Of a stretch of 64,000 nt of DNA, positions 947 through 62,161 are shown piece after piece. The position numbers and the translations under genes are program-made. Origin of the DNA: Eledone cirrhosa (Eukaryota). How positions within the stretch are numbered: position 1 is the stretch's first letter; the number at the start of each line of letters is the position of its first letter. The DNA is taken from contig OZ024743.1 in NCBI GenBank assembly GCA_964016885.1, positions 72,354,001-72,418,000 on the forward strand, given 5' to 3'. The notes under the pieces are model-generated. The model was not told where the DNA came from and made no database searches. It saw only the letters and a list, made by a program, of their open reading frames with translations.

Positions 947-1008
<62 letters not shown>
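947..1008. repeat. (AAT)n tract, left boundary of the retrotransposon nest
   Basis: Perfect trinucleotide run. Confidence 0.98.
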
Positions 1009-1010
<2 letters not shown>

Positions 1011-1258
1011 TTTCTTTATTAACCACAAAGGTTTACATAAAGTAGACATTAAGGACAGTGCAGGACAATACAGGACGGTACAAATGGGCATTTCTGCGTG
1101 TAAAAAACAAAAACAGAGGATGTAACAAAAAATAACAATGAAAAATTCCCCAATATGGGGGAGACTTCGGAGGGACATTTGTGGAGAAAGCCCAGTAAAA
1201 GGCCAAAATGACCCTGACCACCAAGGCAAGTGCCCTCTCCCAGTTTTCCACCTTTAAT

Positions 1259-4200: not shown

Positions 4201-4668
4201 TCCGCTAATCCCACACAGTCCCAGCGTGCATCTAAGATCCCGTTCCATTCGCCCACTAACACTAAAGAGCGGGACGTTCCAAGAAAGGTCTCCAGACGCC
4301 GGAAGAAATCAGGCCGCCCTGCTCCTGTCGGGGCATAGACGGCCACTAGCCTGAAAGCTTGCCCGTCTCCGCTGGTCACGTCCAGCACCAACAACTTACC
4401 CTCTGGGTCCAGGAAGAAGGCCCGTATGGCGAGATCCAAATCTCTCCGAAAAAGCACAGCAACTCCTCCCCCCGATCCAGGACGGCTGGGAGATGCGTAC
4501 ACATCGTAGCCGCCAAAGATCGGTGCGAAGGCCCGTGCTTCGGAGATTCTGGTCTCGCTGATGGCCACTACATCTGTTTAGTGACCTGAGGTCGTTGAGC
4601 AAGTGACCCTGCTTCCATGACAACCCCAAGCCACGCGCTTTTATGCTGCCTATTCTGAGTGAGGTCAT
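1259..4668 (-). pseudogene. Tx1-A ORF2: apurinic-like endonuclease + reverse transcriptase, disrupted
   Basis: Starts MTSLRIGSIKARGL. APE motifs AISETR, VYAP, GEWNG, DHK. RT motifs KSPGLDG, FRPITLLN, LDQSKAFDRVDH, QGCPLS, YADD. C-terminal C..ETVLHALLQCP. Frameshift near 4575, stop at 2943-2945, further frameshifts downstream. Confidence 0.92.
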
Positions 4669-4689
4669 GTTTAAAATAGAGTGGAAAAG

Positions 4690-7067: not shown

Positions 7068-7077
7068 TAATAATAAC
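7030..7077. repeat. (AAT)n spacer between Tx1-A 5' end and Dong-B
   Basis: Trinucleotide run with one AAC variant. Confidence 0.95.
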
Positions 7078-10000: not shown

Positions 10001-10466
10001 TGCAAATAGACCTGATATAATATTGAAGGACTTTAAAAAGAGGGTATGCCTGCTAATTGATATGTCTGTTCCAATAGACAAGAATGTATCTATAAAAACA
10101 TTTGAAAAATTGAGCAAGTATAAGGACCTGGAGATAGAAATTGGAAAAATGTGGAAATTGAGAACTAAAACAATACCAGTGGTTGTAGGCGCTCTGGGAA
10201 TGATACATAAGGGGTCTAATGATTACTTATCGCAAATCCCAGGAAACCCGCGTATAGGAGAAATAAAAAAGATAGTACTAATGGGAACTGCCCATATACT
10301 AAGGAAGATTCTGTCAATATAAGTACATCACAAGTGTAAACACTAAAGATGCATGTGTGAGTATGTATGTTCTTTCTTGAACATGGCGGACCTTGTTGTC
10401 TCTTGAGGTCACTGGTTGTGACTTGGTGATAACTCGCATGAACATAAAACAAGATAAATGCAACTG
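7078..10466 (+). mobile_element. R4/Dong-clade RLE non-LTR retrotransposon, family B, 5'-truncated
   Basis: Begins mid-ORF directly after (AAT)n. RT, CCHC and PD-(D/E)xK nuclease domains, a short 3' UTR and a (TAA)n tail at 10467-10487. Confidence 0.9.
7080..10322 (+). pseudogene. Dong-B RT-RLE polyprotein, frameshifted
   Basis: KSPGKD, YRPITCL, GIFQGDSLSPLLF, YMDDLKL, CRVC..ETIDHIISMC, RHD, NRPDI..D..K..KY.DL. Frameshifts near 7745 and 8165. Apparent in-frame deletion of ~15 aa near 9070 relative to family C. Confidence 0.88.
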
Positions 10467-10483
10467 TAATAATAATAATAATA

Positions 10484-12608
10484 ATAACATCCCTCCACCC
10501 GAAACTGACAACCATGTTCAATAACTGCTTGATGTCAGGTGAGGTACCAGAGTGGTTGACAAAAGGTACCACAGTTCTGATAATGAAAGACCGAATCAAG
10601 GGTAATGTTGTTACCAACTATAGACCTATCACATGTCTGTCCGTAATGTGGAAACTGTTGACAAGCATTATGTCTGAGGAAATCTACCATCACCTCCACA
10701 CAAACAACTCGTTACCGGACGAACAGAAAGGATGCCGAAAGAAGTCACGTGGTACAGAGGACCAGTTACTTATTGATAAGAAGGTAATGAGGAATTGCAA
10801 GAGGAGACACACTTGTCTTACCATGGGATGGATAGACTACAAACAGGCATTTGACATGGTGCCTCATTCTTGGATCACCAAAAGCCTGGAGATCTTCAAG
10901 GTGGCAGATATCATAAGACAGTTGTTGGGCAAAAGTATGAAGACCTGGGAAACAGAGTTAACATCAACTGGAGAATCCTTGGGAAGCGTGAAGATCAAGA
11001 GAGGTATCTTCCAGGGAGATAGTCTGTCCCCTCTGTTGTTTGTCCTTGCCCTGATGCCCCTGACCAGTTTACTGCGAAAAGTGAGAGCAGGATACAGGTT
11101 GGGAAAGGGAGAGCTTACCATCAATCACCTCCACTTCATGGACGATCTTAAGCTCTTCGGGAGAAGTGAGAAGGAGTTGGATGTGCTTGTTGACACTGTC
11201 GGTATTTTCAGCAATGATATATGTATGCAATTCAGTATTAGTAAGTGTGGAGTCATTGTGATGAAGAGGGGTAAATTGAGCAGAAGTAACGGAATCCGGG
11301 TAGCAACAGGTGAGATGATAAAGGAAATTGACTCTGAAGAAGGATACAAGTATTTGGGCGTTCTGGAGTCTGATGACATCAAGAACAAAAAAATGAAGGA
11401 ATTGATAAGAACTGAATACATTCGGAGAGTAAGGAGCGTATTAAAGTCACATCTGAACAGTAGGGATGCCATAAGTGCAGTAAATTCCCGAGCTGTGTCT
11501 ATTATTAGGTACAGTGCGGGAATTCTGAGATGGAATGTTGCTGAACAAAAAGAAATGGATAGGAAGACCAGGAAGCTATTGACTATCTACAACATGTTCC
11601 ACAAGATGTCGATAGACTCTAGTTAAGGAGATCTGAAGGTGGAAGAGATGTTATCAGCATAGAGGACTGTGTTCAGATGGAGAAAAACAACCTACACAAA
11701 TACGTGACTGATAGTAAGGAGCCAATGCTGAGAACTGTACTGAAGGAGGGGACAATAGGCCAGGGATGTCCAAGGAGGAAATAACATCAAGGAGAAAGAG
11801 CAGCCTTCAGGAAAAATCCCTTCATAGTACCTTCTTTGAGAAAACTGAATTTAGAGATCCACAGACATGGAACTGGTTGAAAAGAGGAGACCTTAAAAAG
11901 GCTACAGAAGGAATGTTAATGGCTGCGCAGGAGCAGGCCCTCAAAACGAAGTGGTTGAAATACCATATTTACAAGGAGGAGACTAGCCCACTGTGCAGGA
12001 TCTGTGGAGAGAGAGAGGAGACTGTGGCTCACATTGTATCCGAGTGTAAACACCTAGCCCAGACTCACTATAAGGGTTGGAGACATGATGTGATGGGCAG
12101 GGTGATCCACTGGCACCTATGCAAAGTAAACAATTTACCACATTCTGAGAAGTGGTATGAGCATAAGCCAGAGTCGGTGATAGAAAACGATCAGGTGAAG
12201 GTGCTGTGGGATTTTAGGATAAGGTGCTGTGGGATTTTAAAGAAAAAATATCGTGCCTGATTGTGGATGTGGCCTGCCCATTCGACACGAGAGTGCAAGA
12301 GAAGGAGAGTGAGAAAATTAACCGATACCAGGACTTAAAGTGTGAGGTAAAAAGGATTTGGAATTGCCATGAAGTCAAAGTGATCCCGATTGTCATAGGC
12401 GCACTAGGGACTATCTCAAAAAGTTTCCAGGCATGGTTAAAGAAAACTGGCCCCTTCACGCTTTTTGGAACGCTTAAAAAGGCATGCTTGCTGGGAATAG
12501 TAAAAACCCTCTGATACGTCCTGAATATCTGAGTCTGCAGGTAGTGGCTTGCTATTCATTTCAACAAACTTTCCAGTTAACTAACATAAATGACTGAGAC
12601 TCAAAGAG
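10484..12608 (+). mobile_element. Dong family C, copy C1, 5'-truncated and defective
   Basis: Roughly 90% identical by eye to 27215-29379. Frameshift and TAG near 11605-11622. The RPD catalytic segment is replaced by a short duplication near 12200-12240. (AAC/AAT)n tail at 12609-12648. Confidence 0.93.
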
Positions 12609-12648
12609 TAATAACAACAACAATAATAATAATAATAATAATAATAAT

Positions 12649-13995
12649 GATTTAATCTATTAGCCACAAGGGCCGACATGTAGAGGACAATACAAAGACA
12701 GGGACAGTGGGGGTTTACAATAAGGTCGAGTAAAAGTGCACAATGGCAAGACTAATTTAACAATGAAGATATAAAAATATAAAATAAACTATGCATAAAT
12801 ATAACAAAATAAATTCCCCGATATGGGGTGGACGACCCTCGGGTGACTCGGGTACCCACCCAATCCTGAACCACCCTGCACTCTAGGGCAACCAGAGAGA
12901 GCACCCCTCTCCTCAAGTTAGCTAGCCTATAGGCGCATGGTCAGAGTAAGCCCATTCACATGAGACATTCTCGCCACATTCACCCACCTTTTAGCAAATG
13001 TACTGGGGGGCAGCACTTGTCTCTCCACCCTCACTTTCCTTTTCAGGTGAAATTTGAAGAAGTTGATGAGGGATTGGCTGAAGAGAAAAGTGTCTGTCTT
13101 CAGTCCTTTTAACCTGGTCCACCATATAACTTTTTTCGCAACTGCCACCAGACAGAGGAAAATTTTCTGCTCTTCCTGATCTAAGGAAGTCGGTGGGTCG
13201 ATCTTCACTATGGACTAGCCGATAGCCGGATTCGTTCCACATGCGACAGTAGCTGTTCGACTTAACTCCACAAGTCATTAATGCACGGACATTGGACAAG
13301 TGTGTGCAGAACGGTTTCGTCGTTCTGTGCGCATCTTGGGCAGGTCCGTCTGACAGCACTTCTGTGCCTGTAGAGTTTATCCCGAACCGGCAGAGCCCCC
13401 CCGGTAGCACTGCCAAGCGAGGGATTTCTGGAAATTTTCCATCGTCCCCGGCTCAAAATTCCTCCGGTACAGATTGGTCAGTTCGACTTCGTCGAGGCCC
13501 AAAGCTTCTCCGAGTGCGTCATGGCACTTTCCCACCACTAATCCTCTATAGAACTCGAAAGTGAAAGTTCCACTGATTGCATTGCCCGCTTGGTAGAGGG
13601 CATTGAGTGCCTGGCAACATTCCAGGTGATGTCACCCAGTCTCGGTCTCTTCTTGACCCAGGACTGCAGCTCAGTTAAAGAAATGAGCTGCGGAAAGGTT
13701 CGTCTGATAAACGGCGACCACACCTGTTCACCGTTGAGGCAGAATATCTGGAGATGTCGAAGCCTCAACGCATGTCTGCGCATCATTAGCCACGGAATGC
13801 CCAGCACTCCGCGTAGAGGGTGCTGGCAGCAGATGGACCGCCTCACCAACGTAACTTGTCCCTCCATAAGAATTTGAAGAGGAGCCGTTTCAACTTGACG
13901 AGGCGTGGACGGGGGCAAGGCACGACGGTCAGGCGGTAGTATATGACGGACGCGATGTACGCATTCGCGACCTCCGCGCGACTTTTCAGTGATAG
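12649..13995 (-). mobile_element. Tx1-type element, diverged family D, 3' fragment (5'-truncated)
   Basis: Translates to LSLKSRAEVANAY, VRRSICCQHPLRG.LG.PWLMMRRHALRLRHL, CPRCAQNDETVLH..VQCP, homologous to A/E ORF2 but with a different 3' UTR. Its 3' end abuts (AAT)n. Confidence 0.88.
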
Positions 13996-14039
13996 AGAAG
14001 ATACGCACATGGTGGATAGGGTATTATGGAATCGCTCCC

Positions 14040-14986
14040 GTAAGATTTTGATTTTTTACATATTTAAAACAATTGTGATAGAATCATTCTTATTACAAAT
14101 GAAACGTAAGATATCAGTCTCGACTCTCAGGAAGTGGCAACGCATCACATTGCGGCATAGGGCTCCAATATGTAATATTTAATTTAATATTTAATTTTGT
14201 ACCAGAAATCTTATAGTCAGAAAAGGAAATGGCTAGAAAATAACAGCCAAATAACTTCACCACCAACACCACCACCACCGCCGCCGCCACCATCACCATA
14301 ACCACTACCACAACAAATCTAGCCAAATACAGACCAGCACCATCCCTATGGCGGTGCTGTCCCATCACCACCGCTGCCGCCACTGTTCCCTCAGTGCTTG
14401 AGAGAGAGTTGTTGATGCCGCTATGAATGAAGGAAAGCGAGCAAGGTATCAAAATATATAAATAGACTGGGTTAGTGACTCGGTCAAATAGCTAACAACA
14501 ACAACAACAACACCAAAATAATTATGTTGTTATATCTCTAAACTCTCTCAAAATGTTTAGTTTAAACAATATCAAATCTAAACTATAATATAATAATAAT
14601 AAGTGCTTCTGCTTTGGGCACGGGGCCAGCAATTTTCCCGGTGTGTTGCAGGTGCTTTGTGGTGTCGGCCACGTAGGGATGAGAGGGAAAAATATTATAG
14701 ACAGAGGCAAAGGCAACAACGGACACGGGTTTCAAAAGTTTTGAGCACAACTACCCATACTTCCCTTAGCAGCAGCAGCAACAGCAACACTAGTAACCGA
14801 TGTTACTGGCCTTGTAAAACGAAAAACGCAAAGGAGAAAAACAAACAAAAGAGGGAGAGAGAAAAAGGAAAGAAAAGCTAAGTCAGACATTCAAACATTA
14901 CAATGAAACTTGTGTTTGTTTTTGTTGTGTTTTTTTTTTTAGGTTTTTATCTATTTGTTTGTTTGTTTATGTATATTCGTCTACAG
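14040..14986 (+). other. Candidate GT-AG intron in Dong-C2 5' UTR
   Basis: Donor CC|GTAAGA at 14040. U-rich tract plus CTACAG|CGTG acceptor ending 14986. Homologous sites in C3. Confidence 0.4.
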
Positions 14987-15111
14987 CGTGATGGTGCCAC
15001 GCTAAAATCACCGGGGGTGATGAAATCACCGTTAGTTATGTAACCATACATTCACCAATCCTCGATATGAGTGCTTAAGTGTCGAACCTAAACAGTTCGA
15101 ATAACGGTGAA

Positions 15112-18100
15112 GTGGAGACTGGAATATCATGTGACAGACTCTCACCCAGCAGGTGTTCCCTGGCCCAGCAGCAGGGACGTGTCTGTCAACCAAATACTGC
15201 TGGTGTCAGAGGAAAAAGAAGAAGGAAAGGGACCAGAACCAACTGGACGAAATAATTGAATAGAGCTGTTATGCAATGTTACCTGAAGAGTAACCCCAAG
15301 GAAAAATGCTATGGGAAACGGATGCATAACATCTGGAACGAGATTGGTCTATTTAAATTAGATGAACAAAAATTGGTTGTGCAGGGTCGGGTAATAAGAA
15401 CTAATGGGTGGATAAGCGAGCTGGAACTGGAGGAACTGAGCAGAGAGATTAGGTTGGAAATGGAGAGTGGAGTATGCCAGGCAAACGAGCCAGTGGGAAA
15501 TGAAGGTGAAGAGGTTGAGAGAACGGGGGAACCATCCGAAGCAGACAATGATCTGAATGTTGAAATAAATAATACCTGGAACAAAGATACGGCCATTGAG
15601 GAAATGAATGCTGACCGGCTAGGACAAGATTTGGTTGATATCCTAAACTTAGTGGTAGATGAAATGAACAATGATAGTGGGAAACCTATGAACCTAAGAT
15701 TTGTAGTCAGGAAAAAGTTAAAAGAAACAAGAGCTAAGATAAACAAAGTCATCCCATACCTTGAGGCGAGGAGCCTTCACCAGTGGAACAATATCCCCAA
15801 AGCAACAGCAAAAAGGTGAGGAAATTACTTGGCATAAAAGCGAGAGGAAACAATAAACAAGAAAGATCAGAACCTTGGTGGAAGAAACAACTGAATGGTC
15901 AAATCAGGGAAATGAGAAATGACATTGGAAAGCTTGAGTCCCTACTGAATGGGACACTAAAAAACATAGACACTAAAAATAGACTGGAAATAAAGTACAA
16001 GACTAGGAGGAAAAGGCTAAATATTATCATAAAGGAACTGAAGCAACGCATTGTAGCAAAGAGTGCAAAAATTAGGCGATACGAGAGCAGAGTCAGTCAG
16101 AACCGCATGTTTGACAACAACCAGAAGTTGTTTGGACAGCTTGAATGGAAAGAAAGAGGCAACGACTTGATCCCTGAGGTGGAACAAACTAAGACATTCT
16201 GGAGAGCAATATGGGAGCAGGATGTTAAACATAATGACCAGGCAGAGTGGATTGAGACAGTACAAAGGGAGATTAGTGAACAGGCACACCAACAAACTGA
16301 TTTGAGTATCACAGTTGAAACTCTTAAGGCGCAGGCCAAAAAACTAACCAACTGGAAATCACCAGGCCCAGATGGTGTGCAGGGGTATTGGATTAAAAAT
16401 ATAACATCCCTCCGCCCGAAACTGACAACCATGTTCAATTACTGCTTGATGTCAGGTGAGGTACCAGAGTGGTTGACAAAAGGTACCACAGTTCTGATAA
16501 TGAAAGACCGAATCAAGGGTAATGATGTTACCAACTATAGACCTATCACATGTCAGTCCGTAATGTGGAAACTGTTGACAAGCATTATGTCTGAGGAAAT
16601 CTACCATCACCTCCACACAAACAACTTGTTACCGGACGAACAGAAAGGATGCCGAAAGAAGTCCCGTGGTACAAAGGACCAGTTACTTCTTGATAAGAAG
16701 GTAATGAGGAATTGCAAGAGGAGACACACTGGTCTTGCCATGGGATGGATAGACTACAAAAGGGCATTTGACATGGTGCCTCATTCTTGGATCACCAAAA
16801 GCCTAGAGATCTTCAAGGTGGCAGATAACATCAGACAGCTGTTGGGCAAATGTATGAAGTCCTTGTAAACAGAGTTAACATCAGCTGGAGAATCTTTGGG
16901 AGGCGTGAGGATCAAGAGAGGTATCTTGCAAGGAGATAGTCTGTCCCCTCTGTTGTTTGTCCTTGCCCTGATGCCCCTGACCATTATACTGCGAACAGTG
17001 AGAGCAGGATACAAGTTGGGAAAGGAAGAGCTTACCATCAATCACCTCTTCTTCATGGACGATCTTAAGCTCTTCGGGAAGAGTGAGAAGGAGTTGGATG
17101 TGCTTGTTGACACTGTCCGTATTTTCAGCAATGATATATGTATGCAATTTGGTATTAGTAAGTGTGGAGTCCTTGTAATGAAGAGGGGTAAATTGAGCAG
17201 AAGCAACGGAATCCAGGTACCAACAGGTGAGATGATAAAGGAAATTGACACTGAAGAAGGATACAAGTATTTGGGTGTTCTGGAGGCTGATGACATCAAG
17301 AAGAAAAAAATGAACGAATTGATAAGATCTGTATATATTCGGAGAGTAAGGAGAGTATTAAAATTACATCTGAACAGTAGGAATGCCATAAGTGCAGTAA
17401 ATTCCCGAGCTGTTTCTATTATTAGGTACAGTGCGGGAATTCTGAGATGGAGTGTTGCTGATCATAAAGAAATGGATAGGAAGACCAGGAAGCTATTGAC
17501 TATCTACAACATGTTCCACAAGATAGACTCTAGTTAAGGAGATCTGAAGGTGGAAGATATGTTATCAGCATAGAGGACTGTGTTCAGATGGAGAAAAACA
17601 ACCTACACAAATACGTGACTGATAGTAGGGAGCCAATGCTCAGAATTGTACTGAAGGAGAGGACAATAGACCAGGGGATATCCAAGTAGTAAATAACAAG
17701 GGGGAAGAGCAACCTTCATGAAAAATCCCTTCATAGTACTTTCTTTGAGAAAACTGATTTCAGAGTCCACAGACATGGAACTGGTTGAAAAGAGGAGACC
17801 TTAAAAAGGCTACAGAAGGAATGCTAATCGCTGCGCGAGAGCAGGCCCTCAAAACGAAGTGGCTGAAACACCATATTTACAAGGAGGAGGCTAGCCCACT
17901 GTGCAGGATCTGTGGAGAGAGAGAGGAGACTGTGGCTCACATTGTATCCGAGTGTAAACACCTAGCCCAGACTCACTATAAAGGCTGGACACATGATGTG
18001 ATGGGCAGGGTGATCCACTGGCACCTATGCAAAGTAAACAATCTACCACATTCTGAGAAGTGGTATGAGCATAACCCAGAGTCGGTGATAGAAAACGATC

Positions 18101-18463
18101 AGGTGAAGGTGCTATGGGATTTTAGGATACAGACGGACAAGAAACTGGAACACAATAGACCTGACCTGGTGGTTTTGGACAAGGAAAAAAGATTGTGCCT
18201 GATTGAAGATGTAGCTTGCCCATTTGACACGAGATTGCAAGAAAAGGAGAGGGAGAAAATTAACCGATATCAGGACGTAAAGTAGGAGGTAAAAAGGATT
18301 TGGAACTGCCATGATGTCAGATTGCCATAGGCGCACTAGCTACTATCTCAAAGAGTTTCCAATGATGGTTAAACAAAATTAGTCCAGCCCCGCATTTTGG
18401 AACACTTCAAAAGGCATGCTTGCTGGAACAGCAAGAACCCTCCGATACGTCCTGAATATCTGA
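15112..18463 (+). pseudogene. Dong-C2 RT-RLE ORF (start GTG where C3 has ATG; multiple lesions)
   Basis: Collinear with CDS 25913-29305. Fragments 15256-15819, 15783-16868, 16896-17537, 17785-18285. Confidence 0.9.
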
Positions 18464-18823
18464 GGCTGCAGGTAGTGGCTTGATATTTATTTCAACTAAC
18501 TTTCCAGTTAACCAGCATCAATGAGTGAGACTCAAAGAACAATAATAATAATAATAATAATAATTATAATTATGCTTTCTTTATTAACCACAAAGGTTTA
18601 ATAAAGTAGACATTAAGAACAGTACGGGACAATACAGGACGGTACAAATGGGCATTTCTGCGTGTAAAAAACAAAAACAGAGGATGTAACAAAAAATTAA
18701 CAATGAAAAATTCCCCAATAGGGGGGAGACTTCCGAGGAACATTTGTGGAAAAAGCCCATTAAAAGACCACAGTGACCTTGACCACCAGGGCAAGTGTCC
18801 TCTCCCAGTTTTCCACCTTTAAT

Positions 18824-21800
18824 TTATAGACACATACTCAGAGAAAGCCCATTCACTCGGGCGATACTTGCTTCTCTCACCCATCTTGCAACAAAATGTT
18901 GGGAAGAGAGCACTTCCCTCTCTACCCTGATTTTCTTTTCAAATGAAATTTGAAAAAGTCAATCAGGGCATCACCGAAGAGGTAAGTGCTCGTCTTCAGC
19001 CCTTTCAAACGTGTCCACCATACTATATCTTTCGCCATGGCCACCAGACAGATAAAAACTGCCTGTCCTTCCCGGCTAAAGTAAGATGGCGGGACAATCG
19101 TCACGATGGACTCAGCTGATAGCTGGATCCGTCCTACACGCAACAACAGGTGTTCGATATAAACCCACAAGTCAGCAATGCTCGGACACTGGACGAGTGC
19201 ATGAAGGACGGTTTCGTCGCCCTGTGCGCATCTCGGACATGACCGGCTGACGGCACCTCCATGCCTGTAGGGTTTATCCCGAACTGGCAAAGCTCCTTGG
19301 TAGCACTGCCAGGCCACGGATTTCTGGAAGTTGTCCCTAGGCCCCGGCCCGAAAGTTCTTCCGAAGAGATTGGCTAGTTGATTTTCGTCGACGCCTAGAA
19401 TTTCTTCAAGTATGTCGTCGCTCTTCCCCTCCACTAATTCTCTATAGAACGCCAAGGTGGAGTTTCCACCTATTACATTGCCCGATTGGTCGAAGGCTGC
19501 GAGCGCCTGAAGACATTTCAGTCTCCAAGCGCTAGTTCTCGGTCTTCGCTGGACCCTGGACTGCAGCTCCGTCAAGGAGACGAGCTGGGGTATGACGCGT
19601 CTAGCAAACGGCGACCACACCTGATCACCGTGGAGGAAGAGGGGGAGATGTCGTAGCCTGAGCGCGTGTCTGCGTATCATCAGCCACGGCATGCCCAGCC
19701 CTCCACCTAGCGGTTTTGACAGCAGATGGACCACCTGACCATCGAGGCGCGTCCCTTCCACGAAATTGCAAACGCTCCAGCTCAGTCACGCGGGGCTTAG
19801 GACAAGGTACGACGGTCAGGCGGTAGCAGATGACGGACGCGATGTACGCGTTAGCCACCTCCGCACGACCTTTCATGGATAGCTTCCACTCCATCCATTT
19901 CTGGGTGAGAGAAGCCACCCTGCTCGTCACTTCGTCCCAGTTTTTGTCCGTCTGGAAGTCTGGACCGACCAGACCCCTAGCAATTTAACCGGTACGTCCG
20001 TCCAGCGCCCGACGACGCTGTTGGACGGCATGGACCTGTCTCTCCAGGTACTGAGCTGCAGGCCCACTGACTTTTCCTGGTTGATCATTGCTCCTGTCAC
20101 CGCTTCGTATTCTTTTCGTGTAATGCCGATCGCCTCGATGTATTTGGCGTTCGACACCACTACGGTGACATCGTCCGCATATAGTGACACGGATCTTTCG
20201 CATCCTAGTTCGCGCGGGATCCTCCTCAACGTCTCCAGTTTGTGCAGTAATGGCTCGAGAGTCAATATGTATAAGAGGGGCGAGAGGGGACATCCTTGGC
20301 GGACAGAGCGCATGATGTTGAACGGTTCCGAAAGGTGACCGTTCACTCTCACTACAGAGCAGATGACGGTGTGCATGGCAGCGATCCAGCCTCTGAAGAC
20401 AGGCCCAAAGCCAGCCGCCCTCAGAACGGCCGCTAGGAAACGATGGTCGACCCTATCGAAAGCTTTCGACTGATCTAAATTGATCAAGGACCCACCCGTG
20501 CCAGGTTCCCTAGCTACCCAATCTACGATGTATCGCATGAGCTGGAGGTTGTCGTGGATGAATCTGTCGGGAATGGCGCATGTCAGCGCCTCTCCCACCA
20601 GACCACCAGCGACAAGCGACAACCTCTTTGCTAGCACCTTGGCCAAAATCTTGAACTCTGTGTTTAGCAGAGTTATGGGCCTGAAATTATCTATGTTATC
20701 CCCATTGTTCGGATCCTTTCTCAGCAGCGCCACAGCTTCTCGGCTCACAGAGCTGGGAAATCTCCCGTTCTGTTGCCAGTTGCAGTAGACGTCCGCCAAG
20801 AGGTCTGCGAACAAGTCTGGCATCTGTACGTAAAGTTTATAAGGCAGACCACCAAACCAGGCGATTTACCCCTTGTGCAGCCAGTCATTGCCTCCCGTAC
20901 TTCAGCTGCTGTTACCGGCTTTGCGCAACACTCCGCCTCAGTGGCCGAGAGCCGTGTCAGTCGGTCTAGGTAAACACTAAAGTCCATCCCTCGAGCCGGT
21001 CCACCGCTGCCCACGAACAGCTGTGCGAAGTGTCGCTGAAAAGCTTCACACATTTGCCCGGGATCGAGTAGCATCCGCCCGTCGTGGTCCACCAAAGACC
21101 GTATCGTGGCTTTGTTACCACGACTCGCCTCAGCCAATCGGGCCCATTGAACGGCTTTCGTCCCCTCGTGTCTGAGAGCACGCACCCTAGCTCTGACAAG
21201 CAGCCTTCGTGCTTTCCATTGAAGAATTGGTCAAGGGCAAATTTCGCCGCCAGAACGTCGGTCGCGATGCCTTTGCTAAGCGCCTCGTCTAATTTTCTAA
21301 CTAGTTCTACCACTGCTCTATTTTTTCTCTATTGCTAAAGCCTTACTAAACCTAATGGACTCTATTCTAATCGCTCTTTTCAGAGCAAACGACCACTTGT
21401 TGCTGAAGATGGCCCCCGTCAACGCCCGCTTAACTATTTCGCTAATCTTGTCTGTGTAGGCTTATCGCGCTGGTAAGGACGCGTTTAGCTTCCAGTAGCC
21501 GGGTCCTCGTCTATGAAGCCTATCTAAGTCAAGGACACAGATCACGAATCTGTGGTCCGTGCAGCTAACTATCTTGAATTGTGGACAGCCTATGGTAGAC
21601 CTACCTATTTCCCTACAAAATACTCTATCTAGATATGATCTTGATGACCCTATGAGATTTGTCCAAGTCCACATTGGCACATTCGGGAAATCCAATCGGT
21701 ACCTGTCAGACAATTCAAAACGCCTGAGCAGGTTGGTGAGGCTCTTGTACCCTCCTCCCTTATCTGCTAATCCCACACAGTCCCAGCGTGCATCTAAGAT

Positions 21801-22209
21801 CCCGTTCCAGTCGCCCACAAACACTAAAGAGCGGACGTTCTAAGAAAGCTCCCCAGACGCTGGAAGAAATCAGGCTGCACTGCTCCTGTCGGAGCATAGA
21901 CGCCCACTAGCCTATAAGCTTGCCCGTCTCCGCTGGTTACGTCCAGCACCACCAACTTACTTTCTGGGTCCAGGAAGATGGCCCGTATGGCGCAATCCAA
22001 ACCTCTCCGTAAAAGCACAGCAATTTCTCCCCCCGATCCAGGACGGCTGGGAGATGCGTACATATCGTAGCCGCCGAAGATCGGTGCGAAGGCCCGTGCT
22101 TCGGAGATTCTGGTCTCGCTGATTGCCACTATATCTATGTTTAGTGACCTGAGGTCCATGACAACCCCAAGCCACGCGTATTTATGCTGCCTATTATGAG
22201 TGAGGTCAT
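18824..22209 (-). pseudogene. Tx1-E ORF2 (APE + RT), disrupted
   Basis: DIVAISETR, GDWNG, SYLDRV, TDHR, LDQSKAFDRVDH, VRQGCPLSPLLY, YADD, CPRC..ETVLHALVQC. Several frameshifts. Confidence 0.9.
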
Positions 22210-22248
22210 GTTGAAATGGAGAGGAAAAGATGGTAAAGACCACTTACC

Positions 22249-24138
22249 TTACTTCTCGTAGAGGAATGATTGTTTCTCCATCCTTTTCACTGCTTGTGGC
22301 CTCCTCCTGGAGAGTGCCTGTCGGAATTCTCCGATGTCCTTGGGGAATTTTTGTTTTAGTGTCGTGTACGTTTTCTCTGTGATGCGAGTGATTTTTATGT
22401 GTGGAGGCATGTGAACTTTTGGTTTGTTGTGTAGTCTTTTTCTGTGATGCTGTTGTTGTGTTGGGCGTAGTGTAATAATTGGTTGTTGTTCAAATTTAAT
22501 GCTGTGTAGTGTGTATCGTTTTGGTTGTTTTGTTTTGTTTGCGTTTGTTTTAGGTTTGTTTCTGTTTCGCTTTTTGGTGACTTTTGGGGTGTTGGTGATG
22601 GTGGTGTTGGGGTCAATGATGGTGATGGTGTTGGTGTTTGTGGTCATGGGGTTGGTGATGCTGGTGTGGATGGTGGCATATCTGTCCTAACTTTTTTGTT
22701 TGATAGTATATTTGTTTCTCTCTGTATTTTGCTTTTGGAGGGGGAAGGAAGAGGACTTTTTCTCTTTTGGTTTCTTTTTCTTTTAATCTTTTTTCCTGGT
22801 ACCGTTTCCCACTCCTCGTCGTCAAAATCTGTCTTGCGATAGATCGGGGAGTAGAAAATCCTCCACAGGCGCTGGTTATGGTTGTGCTGTGGTGGATGGT
22901 GTAGGCGCTGGTGCTAGTTCTGGCGCGTTGGGTGGTGGTGGTGTTGGTTTTGCTACTGTTGCTGGGATTGTTGCTGTTACAGTTGCTACTGTTGTTGCTG
23001 CTACATTTGTTGCTGCTATTTCAGCTGCTGGTGGTGTTGATGGCTGATTCACTGGGGTGGGTAAGAGAGGTGGCCTCAACCTTTTAGCCTGAGGGCAGAA
23101 AACCCTTAGGTGGGTTCCTTCACCACAAACGACAATTACGGTGAGGTGGCTGCCATCAGTGAGGTCTATTACCTCTGGGATCTCCTCAATGCTTTTTTGG
23201 TCCGCTTGGATCAGGAGCTCCATCCCAGATCCGGACCAGTTATCCTGCTTTTATTTCGCTATTTCGATTATCTTGGTGTTGGCTTCGATGCCGGCGAGGA
23301 CGGTAGCCATTAGCCAGGGAATTTCGATGGCCGGTGGAACGTGGGTCACTCTGATCTTCACTAGTCTCTGGCCACAATAGCTTGGGACGAGTGTGAAGTC
23401 ATCACTTCTTAATGGGGCCATGGAGTGTTCTCTGGCCTCCTGTGGTGTTTCAAAGAACATGTCCCCGGTTCCATATTTCTGCCCACGTCTGATGTGGCGT
23501 TTTTTGCCCACACATGTCCCAAAGCTTTTTTGGATTTAGCACTCGGATGCCCGTTCCACTCGGTGCGATTTTATGTTAATCGTCCGATAAGACACGGTGC
23601 ATAGGCGCCGATGCTCCATTTTATTAGGTGTGTGGGGGGGGGGGGGGCTGGACCTGTACCCATCTTTCTTTACCATTCTTTTGGCTTCATCTAATTCCTC
23701 CCTAGTTAATTGGAATGCTTCGCACATTTTTGCTACTCTGGCAAAAGCCGGTAGTTTTTTTATTTCATTGTTGCTGTTGTTGTTATCGTTATTTTTGTTA
23801 TTGTTAATTTTAGTTTCAGTTGTGGTGGTGGTGGTGACGTCAGTGGTGTTCTGTGTGGAAGAGTTCATTTTGGGTGAATTCTTTTCGATATCACGAGATA
23901 ATTTATATTTTTCTTTTGTCTCTGTTGTCGCTGTGGTGGTGGTGGCGGCTTCAACACCTGCAGTCATTGGTAATGGCGGGAAACGAATGTCTGCCTGAGA
24001 CAAATTTAAAATATTGCTACTGCTTATATTTTTAGTGTTGGCAAACGTAGTACTATTTACAATGGTGGTGTCGGTGTGAGGTGTTAGTTTGTGAGGAAGG
24101 TGTGACCCTGAGTCGTCCATGATTTTTTCAAAGAACAT
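22249..24138 (-). pseudogene. Tx1-E ORF1, disrupted
   Basis: CTVSYRT..KS.RVE.A, TPQEA, LVPSYCGQ, and partial knuckle CGEGTHLRVFC, homologous to A ORF1. Confidence 0.75.
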
Positions 24139-24335: not shown

Positions 24336-24409
<74 letters not shown>

Positions 24410-24461
24410 GAATAATAACAATTATAATTATAATAATAACAATCATAATTATAATAATAAT

Positions 24462-24517
<56 letters not shown>
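24336..24517. repeat. Long imperfect (AAT)n tract between the 5' ends of Tx1-E and Dong-C3
   Basis: Direct observation. Confidence 0.97.
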
Positions 24518-24561
24518 GGGAAGAAGACGCACGAGGTGACGGAGGTCATGAAATAGCTCCC

Positions 24562-25784
24562 GTAAGTTTTGAATTTTTAACATATTTAAATCATTTGTGA
24601 AATAACAACTCTTAGTACAAATGCTACGTAAAGCACCCGGCTTGAGCCCCAAAAAATTCGGACCCAAAATATATTGTTATAAGGCTCAAATATTCAAATA
24701 TTCAACTTTGTATTGTACACTGTATATCCAAAAAAAAATGGCTATAAATGGAAGAAGAAGAACCCCCCCCCCCCCTCCTCTCCTCTGGCTACACTATATA
24801 GGACAGCTAAACTCACCAACACCAGAAACTAGATACACTACCCACCCCATCATCTGTGTACACTAAACACAACAGCATTTTCACCTTCACCGCCACCGCT
24901 CACTACGGCCATCATTACCACCACTATCCCATCACCGCCGCCACCACCCCTTGACTCCTTCACTGCTGCTGCCACCGCTACAGCACCATCACTACAGTAA
25001 TACGGCTCAAATATTCAAATATTCAACTTTGTATTGTACACTGTATATCCCAAAAAAAATAAAATGGCTATAAATGGAAGAAGAAGAACCCCCCCCCCCC
25101 CCCCTCCTCTCCTCTGGCTACACTATATAGGACAGCTAAACTCACCAACACCAGAAACTAGATACACCACCCACCCCATCATCTGTGTACACTAAACACA
25201 ACAGCATTTTCACCTTCACCGCCACCGCTCACTACGGCCATCATTACCACCACTATCCCATCACCGCCGCCACCACCCCTTGACTCCTTCACTGCTGCTG
25301 CCACCGCTACAGCACCATCACTACAGTAATACGGTCGCATCACCGCCACCACTGCCTCGGTATCGACATCACCACCACCACTGTCTCAGTATCGCCAACG
25401 CCGCCATTCTCTGCTGGCTGCCACTTCCACATTATAGAATTCCTACTACTAACAAAGAGGAAGGCATCAAAATATATAGATAGACTCAAAAGAAAAAAGA
25501 AAAAACAAACAACAAAACCAAAGCAGCACAGCAACAACAGCAAAAAACGAGAAAAACAAACAGAGAAAAACAAAAACAAAAAAAGAAACCCCCAAAACGT
25601 AAAGAAAATAAGAATGAAGAGAGAAGCAGGCGGACGGACAGAGAAGAGGGGGGAAAAAGTAAAACTTAAAAAACAAAAACTAAGTCAGACATTCGAATAC
25701 TACATTACAATGAAACTTATGCTTATTCATTTTTGGGGCCCTTTCTGTCCGTGTGTTTGTTTGTTTATGTGTGTCCGTATACAG
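24562..25784 (+). other. Candidate GT-AG intron in Dong-C3 5' UTR
   Basis: Consensus donor CC|GTAAGT at 24562. U-rich tract and ATACAG|CGTG acceptor ending 25784. Confidence 0.45.
24683..25332. repeat. Tandem duplication (~321 + ~329 bp) inside the C3 5' UTR
   Basis: GGCTCAAATATTCAAATATTC starts at 24683 and again at 25004. Copies differ mainly in homopolymer lengths. Confidence 0.95.
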
Positions 25785-25912
25785 CGTGGTGATAATGCCA
25801 CACAAGGGCCAAGTGGGATGGCGGATCCACAGATGGCTATGTAAACATACATTCGCCAATCCTCGATAAGAGTGTTTAAATATCGAACATAAACAGTTCG
25901 AATAACGGTGAA

Positions 25913-28900
25913 ATGGAGACTAGAACGTCATGTGACAGACTCTCACCCAACAGGTGCCCCCTGGCTCAGCAGCAGGAACCTGACTGTCAACCAAATACTG
26001 CTGATGTTGGAGGAAGAAGAAGAAGGAAAGGGGCCAGAACCAACTGGACGAAAGAATTGAATAGAACTGTTATGCAATGCTACCTGAAAAGTAACCCCAA
26101 GGAGAGGGGCTACAGGAGACGGATGCATAACATCTGGAACGAGATTGGTTTATTTAAATTAGATGAACAAAAATTGGCCGGGCAGGCTCGGGTAATAAGA
26201 ACTAATGGGTGGATAAGCGAGCTGGAACTGGAGGAACTGAGCAGAGAGAATGGCTTGGAGATGGCGGGTGTAGTATGCCAGACAAGCGAGCCGGCGGGAA
26301 ATGAAGGTGAGGAGGTCCTGAGAACGGAGGAACCACCCGAAGCAGACAATGATCTGAATACTGAGATAAATAATACCTGGAACAGAGATACGGCCACTGA
26401 GGAGATGAATGCTGACGGGCTAGGACAAGATTCGGTTGACATCCTAAATTTAGTGGTAGATGAGTTGAACAATGATAGTGGGAGACCTATGAACCTAAGA
26501 TTTGTAGACAGGAAAAAGTTAAAAGAAACAACAGCTAAGGTAAACAAAGTCATCCCATACCTTGAGGCGAGGAGTCTTCACCAGTGCAACAATATCCTCA
26601 AAGCAACAGCAAATACGGTGAGGAAACTACTTGGTATAAAAGCGAGAGGAAACAACAGACAAGAAAGAGCAGAGCCGTGGTGGAAGAAGCGACTGAGTGG
26701 GCAAATCGGGGAAATGAGAAATGACATAGGAAAGCTTGAGTCACTACTGAATGGGACACTAAAAAACATAGGCACTAAAAATAGACTGGAAATAAAATAC
26801 AAAACTAGGAGTAAAAAGCTAAATATTATCATAGAGGAATTGAAGCAACGCATTGTAGCAAAGAGTGCCAAAATCAGGCGATACGAGAACAGAGTCAGTC
26901 AGTATAAACAGAACCGCATGTTCGACAACAACCAGAAGATGCTGTTTGGCCAGCTTGAGGGGAAAGAAAGAGGCAACGACTTGATCCCTGGGGCGGAACA
27001 AGCTAAAACATTCTGGAGAGGAATATGGGAGCAGGATGTTAGACACAATGCCCAGGCAGGGTGGATTGAGACAGTACAGAGGGAGATCGGTGAGCAGGCA
27101 CAACAACAGACTGATTTGAGTATCACAGTTGAAACTCTTAAGGGGCAAGCCAAAAAACTAACCAACTGGAAATCACCAGGCCCAGATGGTGTGCAGGGGT
27201 ATTGGATTAAACATTTAACATCCCTCCACCCGAAGCTGACGGCCATGTTCAATGACTGCTTGGTGTCGGGTGAGGTGCCAGAGTGGTTGACAAAAGGTAC
27301 CACAGTTCTGATAATGAAAGACCGAATCAAGGGTAATGATGTTACCAACTATAGACCTATCACATGTCTGCCCGTAATGTGGAAACTGTTGACGAGCATT
27401 GTGTCTGAGGAAATCTACCATCACCTCCACACAAACAACTTGTTACCGGACGAACAGAAAGGATGCCGAAAGAAGTCACGTGGTACAAAGGACCAGTTGC
27501 TTATTGATAAGATGGTAATGGGGAATTGCAGGAGGAGACACACTGATCTTGCCATGGGATGGATAGACTACAGAAAGGCATTTGACATGGTGCCTCATTC
27601 CTGGATCACCAAAAGCCTGGAGATCTTCAGGGTGGCAGATAACATCAGACAGTTGCTGGGCAGGAGTATGGGGTCCTGGGAGACAGAGTTGACATCAACT
27701 GGAGTATCCTTGGGAAGCGTGAAGATCAAGAGAGGTATCTTCCAGGGAGATAGCCTGTCCCCTCTGTTGTTTGTCCTTGCCCTGATGCCCTTGACCATTA
27801 TGCTGCGAAAAGTGAGAGCAGGATACAAGTTGGGAAGGGGAGAGCTTACCATCAATCACCTCCTCTTCATGGACGATCTTAAGCTCTTCGGGAAAAGTGA
27901 GAAGGAGTTGGATGTGCTTGTTGACACTGTCCGTATTTTCAGCAGTGATATATGTATGCAGTTTGGTATTGGTAAATGTGGAGTCATTGTGATGAGGAGG
28001 GGTAGGTTGAGCAGAAGTAACGGGATCCAGATACCAACAGGTGAGATGATAAAGGAAATTGACTCTGAGGAAGAATACAAGTATTTGGGCGTTCTGGAGG
28101 CTGATGGCATAAAGAACAAAAAAATGAAGGAATTGTTAAGAAATGAATACATTCGGAGAGTAAGGAGCGTATTGAAGTCACATCTGAACAGCAGAAATGC
28201 CATAAGCGCAGTAAATTCCCGAGCTGTGTCTATTATTAGGTACAGTGCGGGAATTCTGAGATGGAATGTTGCTGAACAAAAAGAAATGGATAGGAAGACT
28301 AGGAAGCTATTGACTATCTACAACATGTTCCACAAGAGGAGTGATGTCGATAGACTCTACCTAAGGAGATCTGAGGGTGGAAGAGGTCTTATCAGCATAG
28401 AGGACTGTGTTCAGATGGAGAAAAACAACCTATACAAATACGTGACCTATAGTAAGGAGCCAATGCTCAGAGCTGTACGGAAGGAGGGGACAGTAGGCCA
28501 GGGGATATCCAAGGAGGAAATAACATCAAGGAGGAAGAGCAGCCTTAAGGGAAAATCCCTTTATAGTACCTTCTTTGAGAAAACTGAATTTAGAGATCCA
28601 CAGACATGGAACTGGTTGAGAAGAGGAGACCTCAAAAAGGCTACAGAAGGAATGCTAATGGCTGCGCAGGAGCAGGCCCTCAAAACGAAGTGGTTGAAGC
28701 ACCATATCTACAAGGAGGAGGCTAGCCCACTGTGCAGGATCTGTGGAGAGAGAGAGGAGACTGTGGCTCACATTGTGTCCGAGTGTAAACACCTAGCCCA
28801 GACCCACTATAAGGGCTGGAGACACGATGTGATGGGCAGGGTGATCCACTGGCACCTGTGCAAAGTAAACAATCTACCACATTCTGAGAAATGGTATGAG

Positions 28901-29305
28901 CATAGGCCAGAGGCGGTGATGGAGAACAGTCAGGTGAAGGTGCTGTGGGATTTTAGGATACAGACGGACAAAAAACTGGAACACAATAGACCTGACCTGG
29001 TGGTTGTGGACAAAGAAAAAAGATCGTGCCTGATTGTGGATGTGGCCTGCCCGTTCGACACGAGAGTGCAAGAGAAGGAGAGGGAGAAAATTAACAGATA
29101 CCAGGACCTAAAGTGGGAGGTGAAAAGGATTTGGAACTGCCATGAAGTCAAAGTGATCCCGATTGTCATAGGCGCACTGGGGACTATCTCCAAAGGTTTC
29201 CAGGGATGGTTAAAGAAAATCGGCCCCTTCACGCTTTTTGGAACGCTTCAAAAGGCATGCTTGCTTGGAACGGCAAGAACCCTCCGATACGTCCTGAATA
29301 TCTGA
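25913..29305 (+). CDS. R4/Dong-type polyprotein: reverse transcriptase + CCHC zinc finger + restriction-like endonuclease (1130 aa)
   Basis: Uninterrupted ORF with WKSPGPDG, YRPITCL, GIFQGDSLSPLLF, FMDDLKL, YKYLG, CRICGEREETVAHIVSEC, RHD, NRPDLV..IVDVACP..EKINRYQDL. Confidence 0.95.
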   Translation: METRTSCDRLSPNRCPLAQQQEPDCQPNTADVGGRRRRKGARTNWTKELNRTVMQCYLKSNPKERGYRRRMHNIWNEIGLFKLDEQKLAGQARVIRTNGWISELELEELSRENGLEMAGVVCQTSEPAGNEGEEVLRTEEPPEADNDLNTEINNTWNRDTATEEMNADGLGQDSVDILNLVVDELNNDSGRPMNLRFVDRKKLKETTAKVNKVIPYLEARSLHQCNNILKATANTVRKLLGIKARGNNRQERAEPWWKKRLSGQIGEMRNDIGKLESLLNGTLKNIGTKNRLEIKYKTRSKKLNIIIEELKQRIVAKSAKIRRYENRVSQYKQNRMFDNNQKMLFGQLEGKERGNDLIPGAEQAKTFWRGIWEQDVRHNAQAGWIETVQREIGEQAQQQTDLSITVETLKGQAKKLTNWKSPGPDGVQGYWIKHLTSLHPKLTAMFNDCLVSGEVPEWLTKGTTVLIMKDRIKGNDVTNYRPITCLPVMWKLLTSIVSEEIYHHLHTNNLLPDEQKGCRKKSRGTKDQLLIDKMVMGNCRRRHTDLAMGWIDYRKAFDMVPHSWITKSLEIFRVADNIRQLLGRSMGSWETELTSTGVSLGSVKIKRGIFQGDSLSPLLFVLALMPLTIMLRKVRAGYKLGRGELTINHLLFMDDLKLFGKSEKELDVLVDTVRIFSSDICMQFGIGKCGVIVMRRGRLSRSNGIQIPTGEMIKEIDSEEEYKYLGVLEADGIKNKKMKELLRNEYIRRVRSVLKSHLNSRNAISAVNSRAVSIIRYSAGILRWNVAEQKEMDRKTRKLLTIYNMFHKRSDVDRLYLRRSEGGRGLISIEDCVQMEKNNLYKYVTYSKEPMLRAVRKEGTVGQGISKEEITSRRKSSLKGKSLYSTFFEKTEFRDPQTWNWLRRGDLKKATEGMLMAAQEQALKTKWLKHHIYKEEASPLCRICGEREETVAHIVSECKHLAQTHYKGWRHDVMGRVIHWHLCKVNNLPHSEKWYEHRPEAVMENSQVKVLWDFRIQTDKKLEHNRPDLVVVDKEKRSCLIVDVACPFDTRVQEKEREKINRYQDLKWEVKRIWNCHEVKVIPIVIGALGTISKGFQGWLKKIGPFTLFGTLQKACLLGTARTLRYVLNI

Positions 29306-59515: not shown

Positions 59516-59577
<62 letters not shown>

Positions 59578-60391: not shown

Positions 60392-60500
<109 letters not shown>

Positions 60501-62064: not shown

Positions 62065-62161
<97 letters not shown>

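Follow-up and report, generated by a model that had tools for sequence, protein, structure and literature searches.

How did an intact retrotransposon in the octopod Eledone cirrhosa come to differ from its neighbouring copies mainly by A>G changes on the sense strand? The window analysed here, 64,000 nucleotides of contig OZ024743.1 (positions 72,354,001 to 72,418,000), carries three copies of one family, C1, C2 and C3 (Table 1). The initial annotation had read C3 as an intact element bearing the fixed signature of ADAR hyper-editing. The reading frame was confirmed as single and open, with 1141 amino acids from stop to stop; its GC content is 46%, vs 33% for window positions 30000-64000. A recount over the 1001 aligned columns of 27220-28220 matched the reported tally exactly: where C1 and C2 agree and C3 differs, 31 of the 48 changes are A>G, together with 6 T>C, 5 G>A, 1 C>T and 5 transversions. 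The wider span 27220-29305 holds 86 differences (49 A>G, 13 T>C, 7 G>A, 4 C>T, the rest other). The estimate of about five changed A residues with a 5' G also stood, at exactly 5 of 31 (27263, 27521, 27671, 28024 and 28107). C1 and C2 have rare lesions in common at 28360 and at 28388, and their deletions near 28336-28348 overlap; they are therefore not independent witnesses. Close to C2, an older piece of 5' UTR sits at about 14026-14191.

Table 1. Features of the three copies, in window positions.
Feature	Position	Strand	Basis or remark
(AAT)n microsatellite 5' of C3, putative target site	24336..24517	+	Sequence; sister copies likewise in AAT arrays
C3 5' UTR, 1.4 kb, fast-evolving	24518..25912	+	No Rfam family at gathering score
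330-bp tandem duplication inside C3 5' UTR	24676-25005 / 24997-25334	+	
C3 ORF, single, open, non-LTR retrotransposon protein, ATG at 25913	25913..29305	+	Youngest-subfamily member
N-terminal conserved block, W..ELN..VM.CY..S.P..RGY..RM..IW	26030..26240	+	Alignment of homologous proteins (A1)
Putative patch from a single editing event, with A>G at sites 27241, 27242, 27263, 27268, 27277	27241..27277	+	Same-branch gain
Reverse transcriptase domain RVT_1, aa 487-738	27338..28093	+	E 2e-23
CCHC zinc knuckle, C952-C955-H964-C969	28733..28786	+	zf-RVT E 8e-5, below Pfam cut-off
Restriction-like endonuclease motif, PD1038-9, D1054, K1070	28991..29101	+	R2 C-terminal stretch alignment
Short 3' UTR and (AAT)n tail of C3	29306..29415	+	Sequence
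Copy C1, 5'-truncated, decayed	10485..12641	+	Large 'old' A-state subfamily
Copy C2, decayed	14869..18570	+	Older A-state

Judged from its sequence, C3 appears to be an R4/Dong-like non-LTR retrotransposon that targets (AAT)n, a placement made by domain layout, reverse transcriptase (RT) matches and target as described for those elements. AAT arrays flank C3 on both sides, and AAT is present at the 3' end in 14/14 sister copies listed and at the 5' junction in 3/3 truncated ones. The R4/Dong elements, in the part of their description available to us (PMC7998251), likewise have a single ORF, an RT, a CCHC knuckle, a restriction-like endonuclease and a conserved N-terminal block, lack an N-terminal zinc finger and target a (TAA)n microsatellite; the 1.4-kb fast-evolving 5' UTR and the raised R/(R+K) over homologs distinguish C3 from them as described there. 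The same source reports a diverged Myb/SANT-like domain at the position of the N-terminal block. The C3 block, a candidate for such a domain, is conserved and without a Cys/His finger; Pfam Myb matched none of the 28 aligned family members. The CCHC and PD..D..K motifs are kept in the 12 listed of these 28 proteins, and the endonuclease region of C3 matches the R2 C-terminus weakly (second stretch, i-E 0.056). Pfam profiles gave no Exo_endo_phos match, and no APE domain, in C3 or the family proteins. The five best PDB matches of the C3 protein are R2 or RT-like proteins, L1 ranking lower; its nearest database proteins are at most 64% identical and none is named R4 or Dong. Searching the 5' UTR against Rfam returned two chance-level matches only and no ribozyme.

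The G state of C3 is derived, as had been proposed: A is ancestral at 48 of the 49 sites, the exception being 28386, where C1 and C2 carry a G>A change. Regarding C1 and C2 as G>A mutated copies therefore holds at 1/49 sites only. Family B, previously invoked as the outgroup, proved uninformative (41% amino-acid identity, no blastn alignment). Its tree is star-like with 10 internal changes, and one of its copies, L160, with 8/16 tip changes A>G, was rejected as an edited copy, the sites being scattered, partly shared and without a cluster. A polishing artefact was rejected on the evidence of identical dispersed copies and of contigs from an independent run. All 40 places among the matches listed are identical to C3 over 25950-26850 at dispersed loci, and 39 further places match C3 28400-29300 at 1612 of 1626 bits. 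In the independent sequencing run X1, 3/3 contigs have the G state, and none of the 7 other differing letters is G>A; contigs of runs X7 and X13 show A and G states mixed. The Gs of C3 are heritable and shared by daughter copies.

About 250 loci of >3,000 candidates, picked as nearest to seven queries, were sampled, and trees were built with FastTree. The copies fall into nested subfamilies that have G at 1, 2, 23, 44 and 49 of the 49 sites; median private divergence by subfamily is 2.8%, 1.67, 1.15, 1.0, 0.6 and 0.1%, and A>G leads every step. The Gs piled up over at least five nested subfamily steps, so the one-step recoding envisaged earlier is not borne out. The AA>GG doublets cited in its favour do exist; three of four (27663/4, 27671/2 and 28005/6) were acquired in two different steps rather than in a single event. 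Nor does C3 carry a hyper-editing signature of its own: its Gs are shared by the subfamily, its 10 ORF differences from the subfamily majority include no A>G, and runs of at least four uninterrupted private A>G occur in 0 of 288 fragments (721 kb). In the 196-copy tree, the trunk changes are 100 A>G, 39 T>C, 42 G>A, 18 C>T and 43 transversions. Singletons per site are 0.199 for A>G, 0.201 for T>C, 0.297 for G>A and 0.308 for C>T; mutations private to a copy, dating from after its insertion, fall equally on both strands and run toward AT, opposite to the trunk direction, and 40 young copies have private changes at 23/880 A vs 14/615 T, without an A>G excess. The source lineage has therefore gained A>G and T>C stepwise, against the symmetric AT-ward mutation of the genome. 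Family A, an APE-type RT LINE at least as abundant in the same genome, shows neither this drive nor an ADAR-like context (internal branches: 17 A>G, 17 T>C, 43 G>A, 31 C>T). Recombination between subfamilies is visible. The lineage changed K>R 18 times vs R>K once, with repeated S>G and R>G, and the C3 protein has an R/(R+K) of 0.49, its three nearest full-length homologs lying at 0.35-0.39.

Much of the raw A>G surplus is likely a product of the protein filter and of the A-richness of the sense strand. Among possible nonsynonymous changes, 73% of A>G vs 26% of T>C score at least 0 in BLOSUM62, and the nonsynonymous purine surplus is seen in reverse too (G>A 23/621 vs C>T 2/314). At ORF synonymous sites pooled over five steps, A>G (60/1317) exceeds T>C (36/1230) 1.6-fold (p=0.04) and is ahead in each step; fourfold boxes give 21/590 vs 6/441 (p=0.03), and synonymous T>C lies above C>T (p=0.014). 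When synonymous and UTR sites of four steps are combined, A>G (56/591) and T>C (46/497) are level (p=0.92), and W>S exceed S>W transitions (102/1088 vs 32/857, p=8e-7). The three alignable 5' UTR segments, a small and low-complexity sample of 62 events with 3-12 copies per group, gained 20 T>C, 14 A>G, 6 C>T and 4 G>A (per site, T>C 20/221 vs A>G 14/291; A>G:T>C 0.53-fold), that is 44 transitions vs 18 transversions, singletons being 800 vs 1021. The initial annotation had counted an equal rise of T>C as grounds against editing; such a rise is seen for the UTR and for the pool of four steps, and narrowly absent at the five-step ORF synonymous sites.

The explanation that we favour, at about an even chance, is that the young R4/Dong-like C3 owes its stepwise A>G and T>C likely to an RT placing C opposite A, likely together with selection on the protein. 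The trunk would be a fast chain of retrotranspositions, so that copying errors would outnumber genomic mutations. A dC placed opposite template rA during first-strand synthesis would appear as sense A>G; made on the second strand, that error would give sense T>C. The genetic code and the A-rich sense strand would turn this near-symmetric input into the 2.5:1 raw surplus; A>G changes are mostly conservative and T>C mostly radical, so selection would pass far more A>G. A smaller ADAR share on top, as occasional edited patches, is plausible. Since the 40 young copies lack a private A>G excess, the load per cycle can be no more than about the published RT error rates. According to the accessible part of PMC11331410, R2 and L1 RT spectra resemble C3 in that transitions dominate, with T replaced and C misinserted most; for the R2 RT, T accounts for 47% of substitutions, and first- and second-strand error rates are equal. 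In the notation rA->rG/dT->dC, found in the available text of a study with the same first author (PMC6009661), the R2 spectrum would on our own reading correspond to sense A>G. The R2 figure is that of a distant relative's enzyme in vitro and stands in for this RT; more generally, the R2/L1 spectra come from other enzymes in vitro, are given without neighbour context in the text available and leave the five-site patch unexplained. Several observations run against RT error: synonymous A>G is above T>C in all five steps, the third-position context described below is replicated (what is available of PMC6009661 reports no context bias for the errors of retroviral RT on the second strand), A>G falls in more-paired predicted neighbourhoods, and the bias of K>R over R>K goes beyond that of the synonymous changes. 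Nor can the five A>G that one branch gained within 37 nt be independent errors of a single round.

It is rather unlikely that ADAR was the main source of A>G, with light edits (single sites and small patches, short of hyper-editing) being reverse transcribed and repeatedly found source copies, and with T>C arising from U-G wobble at the RT. One argument for it is the 5' neighbour of synonymous A>G, counted per site-step: T 20/204 (9.8%), A 31/475 (6.5%), C 7/272 (2.6%) and G 2/365 (0.55%), an order matching the ADAR preference given in the accessible portion of PMC5663115. An independent older step repeats it at third positions (T 9/31, A 8/54, C 1/30, G 0/41), as it does the 18-fold TA-over-GA contrast; mirrored T>C, singletons and family A show no such context. 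The order is, however, restricted to third codon positions: among first codon positions a 5' G is not disfavoured (8/663 vs 14/1368; the contrast with third positions has p=2e-6), nor is it within the UTR (2/31), where T>C is above A>G. By 3' neighbour, synonymous A>G runs at 5.2% for G, 6.0% for C, 4.5% for T and 3.4% for A (p=0.47).

The five-site patch was gained all-or-none (P=1.5e-4 for its branch): 91 copies are all-A, 87 all-G, and 5 have the five Gs with A at 27235. No donor was found among the older copies listed, but a recombination-like tract at 27798-27843 on the same branch implies that the patch could be an import from an unsampled lineage. Same-branch A>G pairs at most 40 nt apart number 25 vs 11.3 expected (p=0.001), although other change types cluster by branch too (42 vs 26.4, p=0.009). 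Neighbourhoods of A>G sites, unlike those of T>C and G>A, are predicted to be more paired (p=0.016 and 0.035, after covariates). If truncated antisense copies supplied the duplex, A>G/T>C would be expected to change from 5' to 3' along the ORF; the four quarters compared showed no clear trend. In split AA doublets the 3' A changed first in 6/6, an order reported for coleoids in the available part of PMC8891338, but also predicted by synonymous-first or conservative-first (K>R, N>S) selection; being confounded by codon paths, it was set aside as independent ADAR evidence. The host has an ADAR2 gene 95% identical to that of Octopus vulgaris, and coleoids edit repeats widely, to judge from the accessible text of PMC9068888; against this stand the missing runs of private A>G, the young copies without private excess, and family A, which shows no sign. 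Of the proposed ADAR origin, then, an octopod with the enzyme's gene and a 5' context in ADAR order at synonymous sites hold, and ADAR is a possible rather than an established cause. In the ADAR-hypermutated proviruses of Rous-associated virus as well as avian leukosis virus, as far as the available text of PMC12925331 goes, sense A>G was likewise written into DNA by reverse transcription with a 5' U/A preference (in C3, at synonymous sites). There, nearly 50% of A in a region changed at once, whereas C3 changed gradually over at least five subfamilies, and its family has at most one five-site patch, a raised T>C and no hyper-edited copy. APOBEC DNA editing (Carmi 2011, cited in PMC9099904) also fixes strand-biased purine transitions in retroelements; in the portion of PMC9099904 available, however, it runs G>A and hits single copies, not the source lineage.

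Improbable, in our judgement, is that G/C was favoured by selection between competing source copies, acting against A/U-rich RNA or for certain codons, or by gene conversion with a GC bias. Such a force would fit the W>S drive on both strands, the visible recombination between subfamilies, and a context confined to third positions, which could reflect codon choice (NTA>NTG and NAA>NAG, not NGA>NGG). ORF trunk transversions, with W>S about equal to S>W (14 vs 13) against roughly 1:2 per site in singletons, point the same way, and LINE base composition has been argued to be selection-maintained (PMC7140322, in the part available). Yet the drive consists mainly of transitions, a pattern not expected from conversion bias by itself, the single host exon counted favours A/T-ending codons, family A lacks the drive, and radical R>G and S>G were accepted repeatedly. 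Finally, hyper-editing of C3 at one go, G>A mutation of C1/C2 or polishing errors are compatible with the three-copy alignment taken alone, but the nested intermediates, A in all older groups, the 40/40 identical dispersed places among the matches listed, the independent contigs with G and the private differences of C3 without A>G make them very nearly out of the question.

It is possible, at somewhat less than an even chance, that lightly edited transcripts repeatedly found source LINEs, ADAR acting as a directional heritable mutagen that recodes the element, with 27241-27277 as an editing fossil. If ADAR supplies A>G, coleoid RNA editing would have a route by which it turns into heritable changes of DNA; no report of such a route for a LINE lineage was found in literature judged by titles and abstract openings, with few subscription journals covered. 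Whichever cause applies, the C3 family is a readout of the effect of the retrotransposition cycle on sequence: the source lineage heads to G/C, A>G first, and the same sequence, once inserted, decays to A/T. In their available parts, studies of LINE base composition used singletons only, with selection inferred (PMC7140322, PMC9099904). Because the burst of full-length copies is very young, the RT-error and ADAR readings are practical to test, and a bias of the copying cycle is a testable alternative explanation for LINEs staying GC-richer than their host.

The C3 protein, 1130 aa long (1141 aa from stop to stop), contains an RVT_1 domain (Pfam, E 2e-23); its CCHC knuckle and PD..D..K endonuclease motif are kept among the aligned homologs, and its nearest solved-structure relatives are R2 proteins. 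An excerpt of one paper lists as R4/Dong traits a reverse transcriptase (RT) with a restriction-like endonuclease, a (TAA)n target and the lack of a finger at the N-terminus (PMC7998251). By such traits, rather than by a tree including named members, C3 appears to be an R4/Dong-like LINE that is otherwise ordinary-looking. Its 5' UTR changes much more rapidly than its ORF: where the ORFs of two subfamilies agree at 93-97%, their UTRs are 70-85% identical (loci L291-L340). Within the UTR, a 330-bp duplication occurs in only part of the young copies, and near 25815 a repeat unit of 18 nt has been gained and lost among copies.

C3 lies in a retrotransposon nest within AAT arrays (959-29415), together with C1 and C2, older decayed copies of the same family C, and with families A and B. 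Family A is an APE-type LINE with 4411 candidates in the genome; its 3' ends adjoin many family C loci genome-wide, and family C seems often to insert into its tail in the opposite orientation. Family B (L148-L177; 1330 candidates) is star-like at about 1.3% divergence, has third positions much A-richer than those of family C, and may have spread in one burst or arrived recently. An inverted repeat of 1067 bp (97.8%) at 59567-62986, with arms at 59567-60633 and 61934-62986 and microsatellites inside, is possibly a foldback or MITE-like element.

Retrotransposon features in the window
Feature	Position	Strand	Remark
Family A (APE-RT)	959-4835, 18535-22291	minus	
Family B	7075-10487		41% aa to C3
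C1	10485-12641		
71% relative	12604-13995		
C2	14869-18570		
Whole C3 element	24518 to about 29415		(AAT)n at both ends
5' UTR of C3	24518-25912		1.4 kb
ORF of C3	25913-29305		

The initial annotation had counted an excess of sense-strand A>G changes in C3, and a three-way alignment reproduced that count exactly: 31 A>G, 6 T>C, 5 G>A, 1 C>T and 5 transversions, making 48 C3-specific differences in the 1001 columns of 27220-28220. Over 27220-29305, A>G accounts for 49 of 86. The two references are not fully independent, since C1 (11596-11650) and C2 (17513-17561) share an overlapping deletion, one stop and two rare alleles absent from every other copy; they separate in the tree despite these lesions, which are likely due to local gene conversion. 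G>A change in C1/C2 explains the difference at only one of the 49 sites (28386). The G alleles are real, being present in 3/3 contigs of an independent public run (X1), and are common to daughter copies. At least 40 dispersed loci are identical to C3 over 25950-26850 (40/40 among the matches listed), and 39 other loci reach 1612 of 1626 bits across 28400-29300, again among the matches listed. When projected on C3 with insertions left uncounted, the ORF is free of gaps and stops in 31/41 young copies. The loci identical over 901 bases mark a very recent burst, most being full length and some head to tail. At least half of the words of C3 occur in each of twelve public runs (nine organism codes), with low depth in the three whose contigs were inspected; these runs may represent related octopods, traces or transfer.

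The proposal that C3 was recoded in one step is wrong; the Gs were instead accrued by nested subfamilies. Subfamily groups were collected with seven queries, taking 30 (38 for 25950-26850) of the 40 nearest loci for each, so that they lean toward low divergence; the oldest group came from an eighth query. Median private divergence from oldest to youngest was 2.8, 1.67, 1.15, 1.0, 0.6 and 0.1%, and the five younger groups carried G at 1, 2, 23, 44 and 49 of the 49 sites. Three of the four AA>GG doublets named in the initial annotation came in two steps. Four steps over 3387 ORF columns comprised 91 A>G, 34 T>C, 34 G>A, 13 C>T and 38 transversions, and the extra oldest step (1822 columns) 28, 14, 12, 3 and 11, respectively. 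The trunk, or source-lineage branches, in a tree of 196 copies covering 90% of 27150-29305 bore 100 A>G, 39 T>C, 42 G>A, 18 C>T and 43 transversions. No run of at least four uninterrupted private A>G changes occurred in 288 fragments (721 kb, unselected secondary matches included), so each insertion brings only a small A>G load. C3 as an ADAR hyper-edited copy is thus ruled out, the Gs being stepwise and none of these fragments a hyper-edited insert.

The A>G bias is a property of the source lineage, and the genomic background runs the opposite way. Singletons per site were 0.199 for A>G, 0.201 for T>C, 0.297 for G>A and 0.308 for C>T, with synonymous and nonsynonymous rates about equal. Private changes in 40 young copies, counted in 2.8 kb outside the region used to select them, were G>A 44/771, C>T 31/523, A>G 23/880 and T>C 14/615. 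Internal branches of family A gave A>G 17, T>C 17, G>A 43 and C>T 31 (49 copies, after 11 of the initial 60 were removed on coverage; the tree was rooted on a window copy, leaving some directions uncertain). Host-wide editing or a codon effect should have touched family A, and its lack of drive counts against both.

A transition drive from AT to GC on both strands is robust. Pooled synonymous and UTR sites over four steps gave equal A>G (56/591) and T>C (46/497), and pooled W>S transitions exceeded S>W 2.5-fold (p=8e-7). The equal T>C elevation that the initial annotation had set against its own reading thus holds in this pool and in the 5' UTR (T>C 20/221, A>G 14/291, C>T 6/201, G>A 4/101; three alignable segments among 50 fetched flanks), but narrowly fails at synonymous ORF sites, where five steps excluding 9 reversions gave A>G 60/1317, T>C 36/1230, G>A 19/1312 and C>T 14/1272 (p=0.04 for the first against the second). 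Sense A>G leads modestly at free sites: fourfold boxes gave A>G 21/590 and T>C 6/441 (p=0.03), and the A>G/T>C ratio was 1.56 in the ORF vs 0.53 in the UTR (z=2.6). At nonsynonymous sites, purine transitions were raised both ways (A>G 49/891 vs T>C 8/430; G>A 23/621 vs C>T 2/314), which indicates that they are tolerated in either direction; 73% of possible nonsynonymous A>G changes score at least 0 in BLOSUM62, vs 26% of T>C. The drift is visible in the protein: lineage changes included 18 K>R vs 1 R>K, and R/(R+K) was 0.49 in the C3 lineage protein vs 0.35-0.39 in the nearest homologs. These changes lie in columns of low conservation, with 1/47 in columns conserved at 90% or more, vs 18% of all columns so conserved.

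A drive that acts on both strands, is rich in transitions and is specific to this element suggests an origin in the enzyme that the element itself encodes, and we give RT miscopying about an even chance of being the cause. For an R2 RT, an excerpted study reports T as the most substituted base (47%), C as the most misinserted, a predominance of transitions, and equal error in both strands at about 1e-4 (PMC11331410). Read through the rA->rG/dT->dC notation, also seen in excerpt (PMC6009661), a slip in strand one would yield sense A>G and one in strand two sense T>C. Equal errors would place A>G about level with T>C and both above their reverses, and the pool agrees. As a rough estimate, synonymous A>G of 0.15-0.2 per site at no more than 2e-4 per cycle would take about a thousand successive retrotranspositions. 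RT error would leave unaccounted for a third-position context and a patch of five A>G changes (27241, 27242, 27263, 27268, 27277).

Both features suggest ADAR editing, which we consider a possible but rather unlikely main source. Synonymous A>G followed the 5' neighbour order T 20/204, A 31/475, C 7/272, G 2/365, repeated in the oldest step alone (T 9/31, A 8/54, C 1/30, G 0/41); this is ADAR's order according to an excerpt of PMC5663115, and it is absent from mirrored T>C, rare private variants and family A. Counting against ADAR as the main source, first codon positions, whose 5' base is independent of the amino-acid change, showed no avoidance of a 5' G (8/663 vs 14/1368; p=2e-6 compared with the third-position pattern), the UTR showed none either (2/31), and synonymous sites showed no 3' G preference (p=0.47). 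The patch was gained together (91 fragments are A throughout, 87 are G throughout, 5 have these five Gs but not that at 27235, and the remaining few differ at one site each), with P=1.5e-4 for its branch and about 0.004 over some 25 branches, and none of the older copies displayed offers a donor. However, the same branch bears a tract reverting to older alleles (27798-27843), so recombination can import blocks, and same-branch clustering of A>G (25 vs 11.3, p=0.001) is accompanied by clustering of other change types (42 vs 26.4, p=0.009). By its alleles, the tract appears to come from a recombinant source element (template switch or conversion); L012, L017, L072, L073 and L041 are further mosaic copies. 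The surroundings of A>G sites were predicted to be more paired, also once covariates were allowed for (p=0.016 and 0.035 in two natural copies). Split AA pairs changed the 3' A first in 6/6, an order reported for coleoid editing in an excerpt of PMC8891338, but synonymous-first or conservative-change-first paths predict the six orders equally. The host is an octopod, as a fragment of its genome is 95% identical to Octopus vulgaris ADAR2, and the assembly has four A_deamin loci (C6, C1 twice and C25; L208-L219), of which that on C6, ADAR2, is the sole one assigned. Selection or gene conversion is an improbable cause of the drive. With RT miscopying still the leading candidate, a smaller ADAR share is about equally likely to be present or absent, since the third-position context and the patch fall outside what RT error predicts.

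Repeats are described as widely edited in coleoids (PMC9068888, excerpt), and ADAR1 is reported to restrict L1 (PMC5224506, listing). C3 is unlike the ADAR-hyper-edited avian proviruses, in which nearly 50% of A are changed (PMC12925331, excerpt), and is not a case of APOBEC editing as excerpted from PMC9099904. LINE composition was studied on singletons only, with selection inferred, in the part seen of PMC7140322. If editing were shown, this would be a LINE lineage that has fixed ADAR edits, for which we found no prior report judging by titles and abstract openings. What is less ordinary here is a directly polarised source-lineage spectrum that runs opposite to the genome's.
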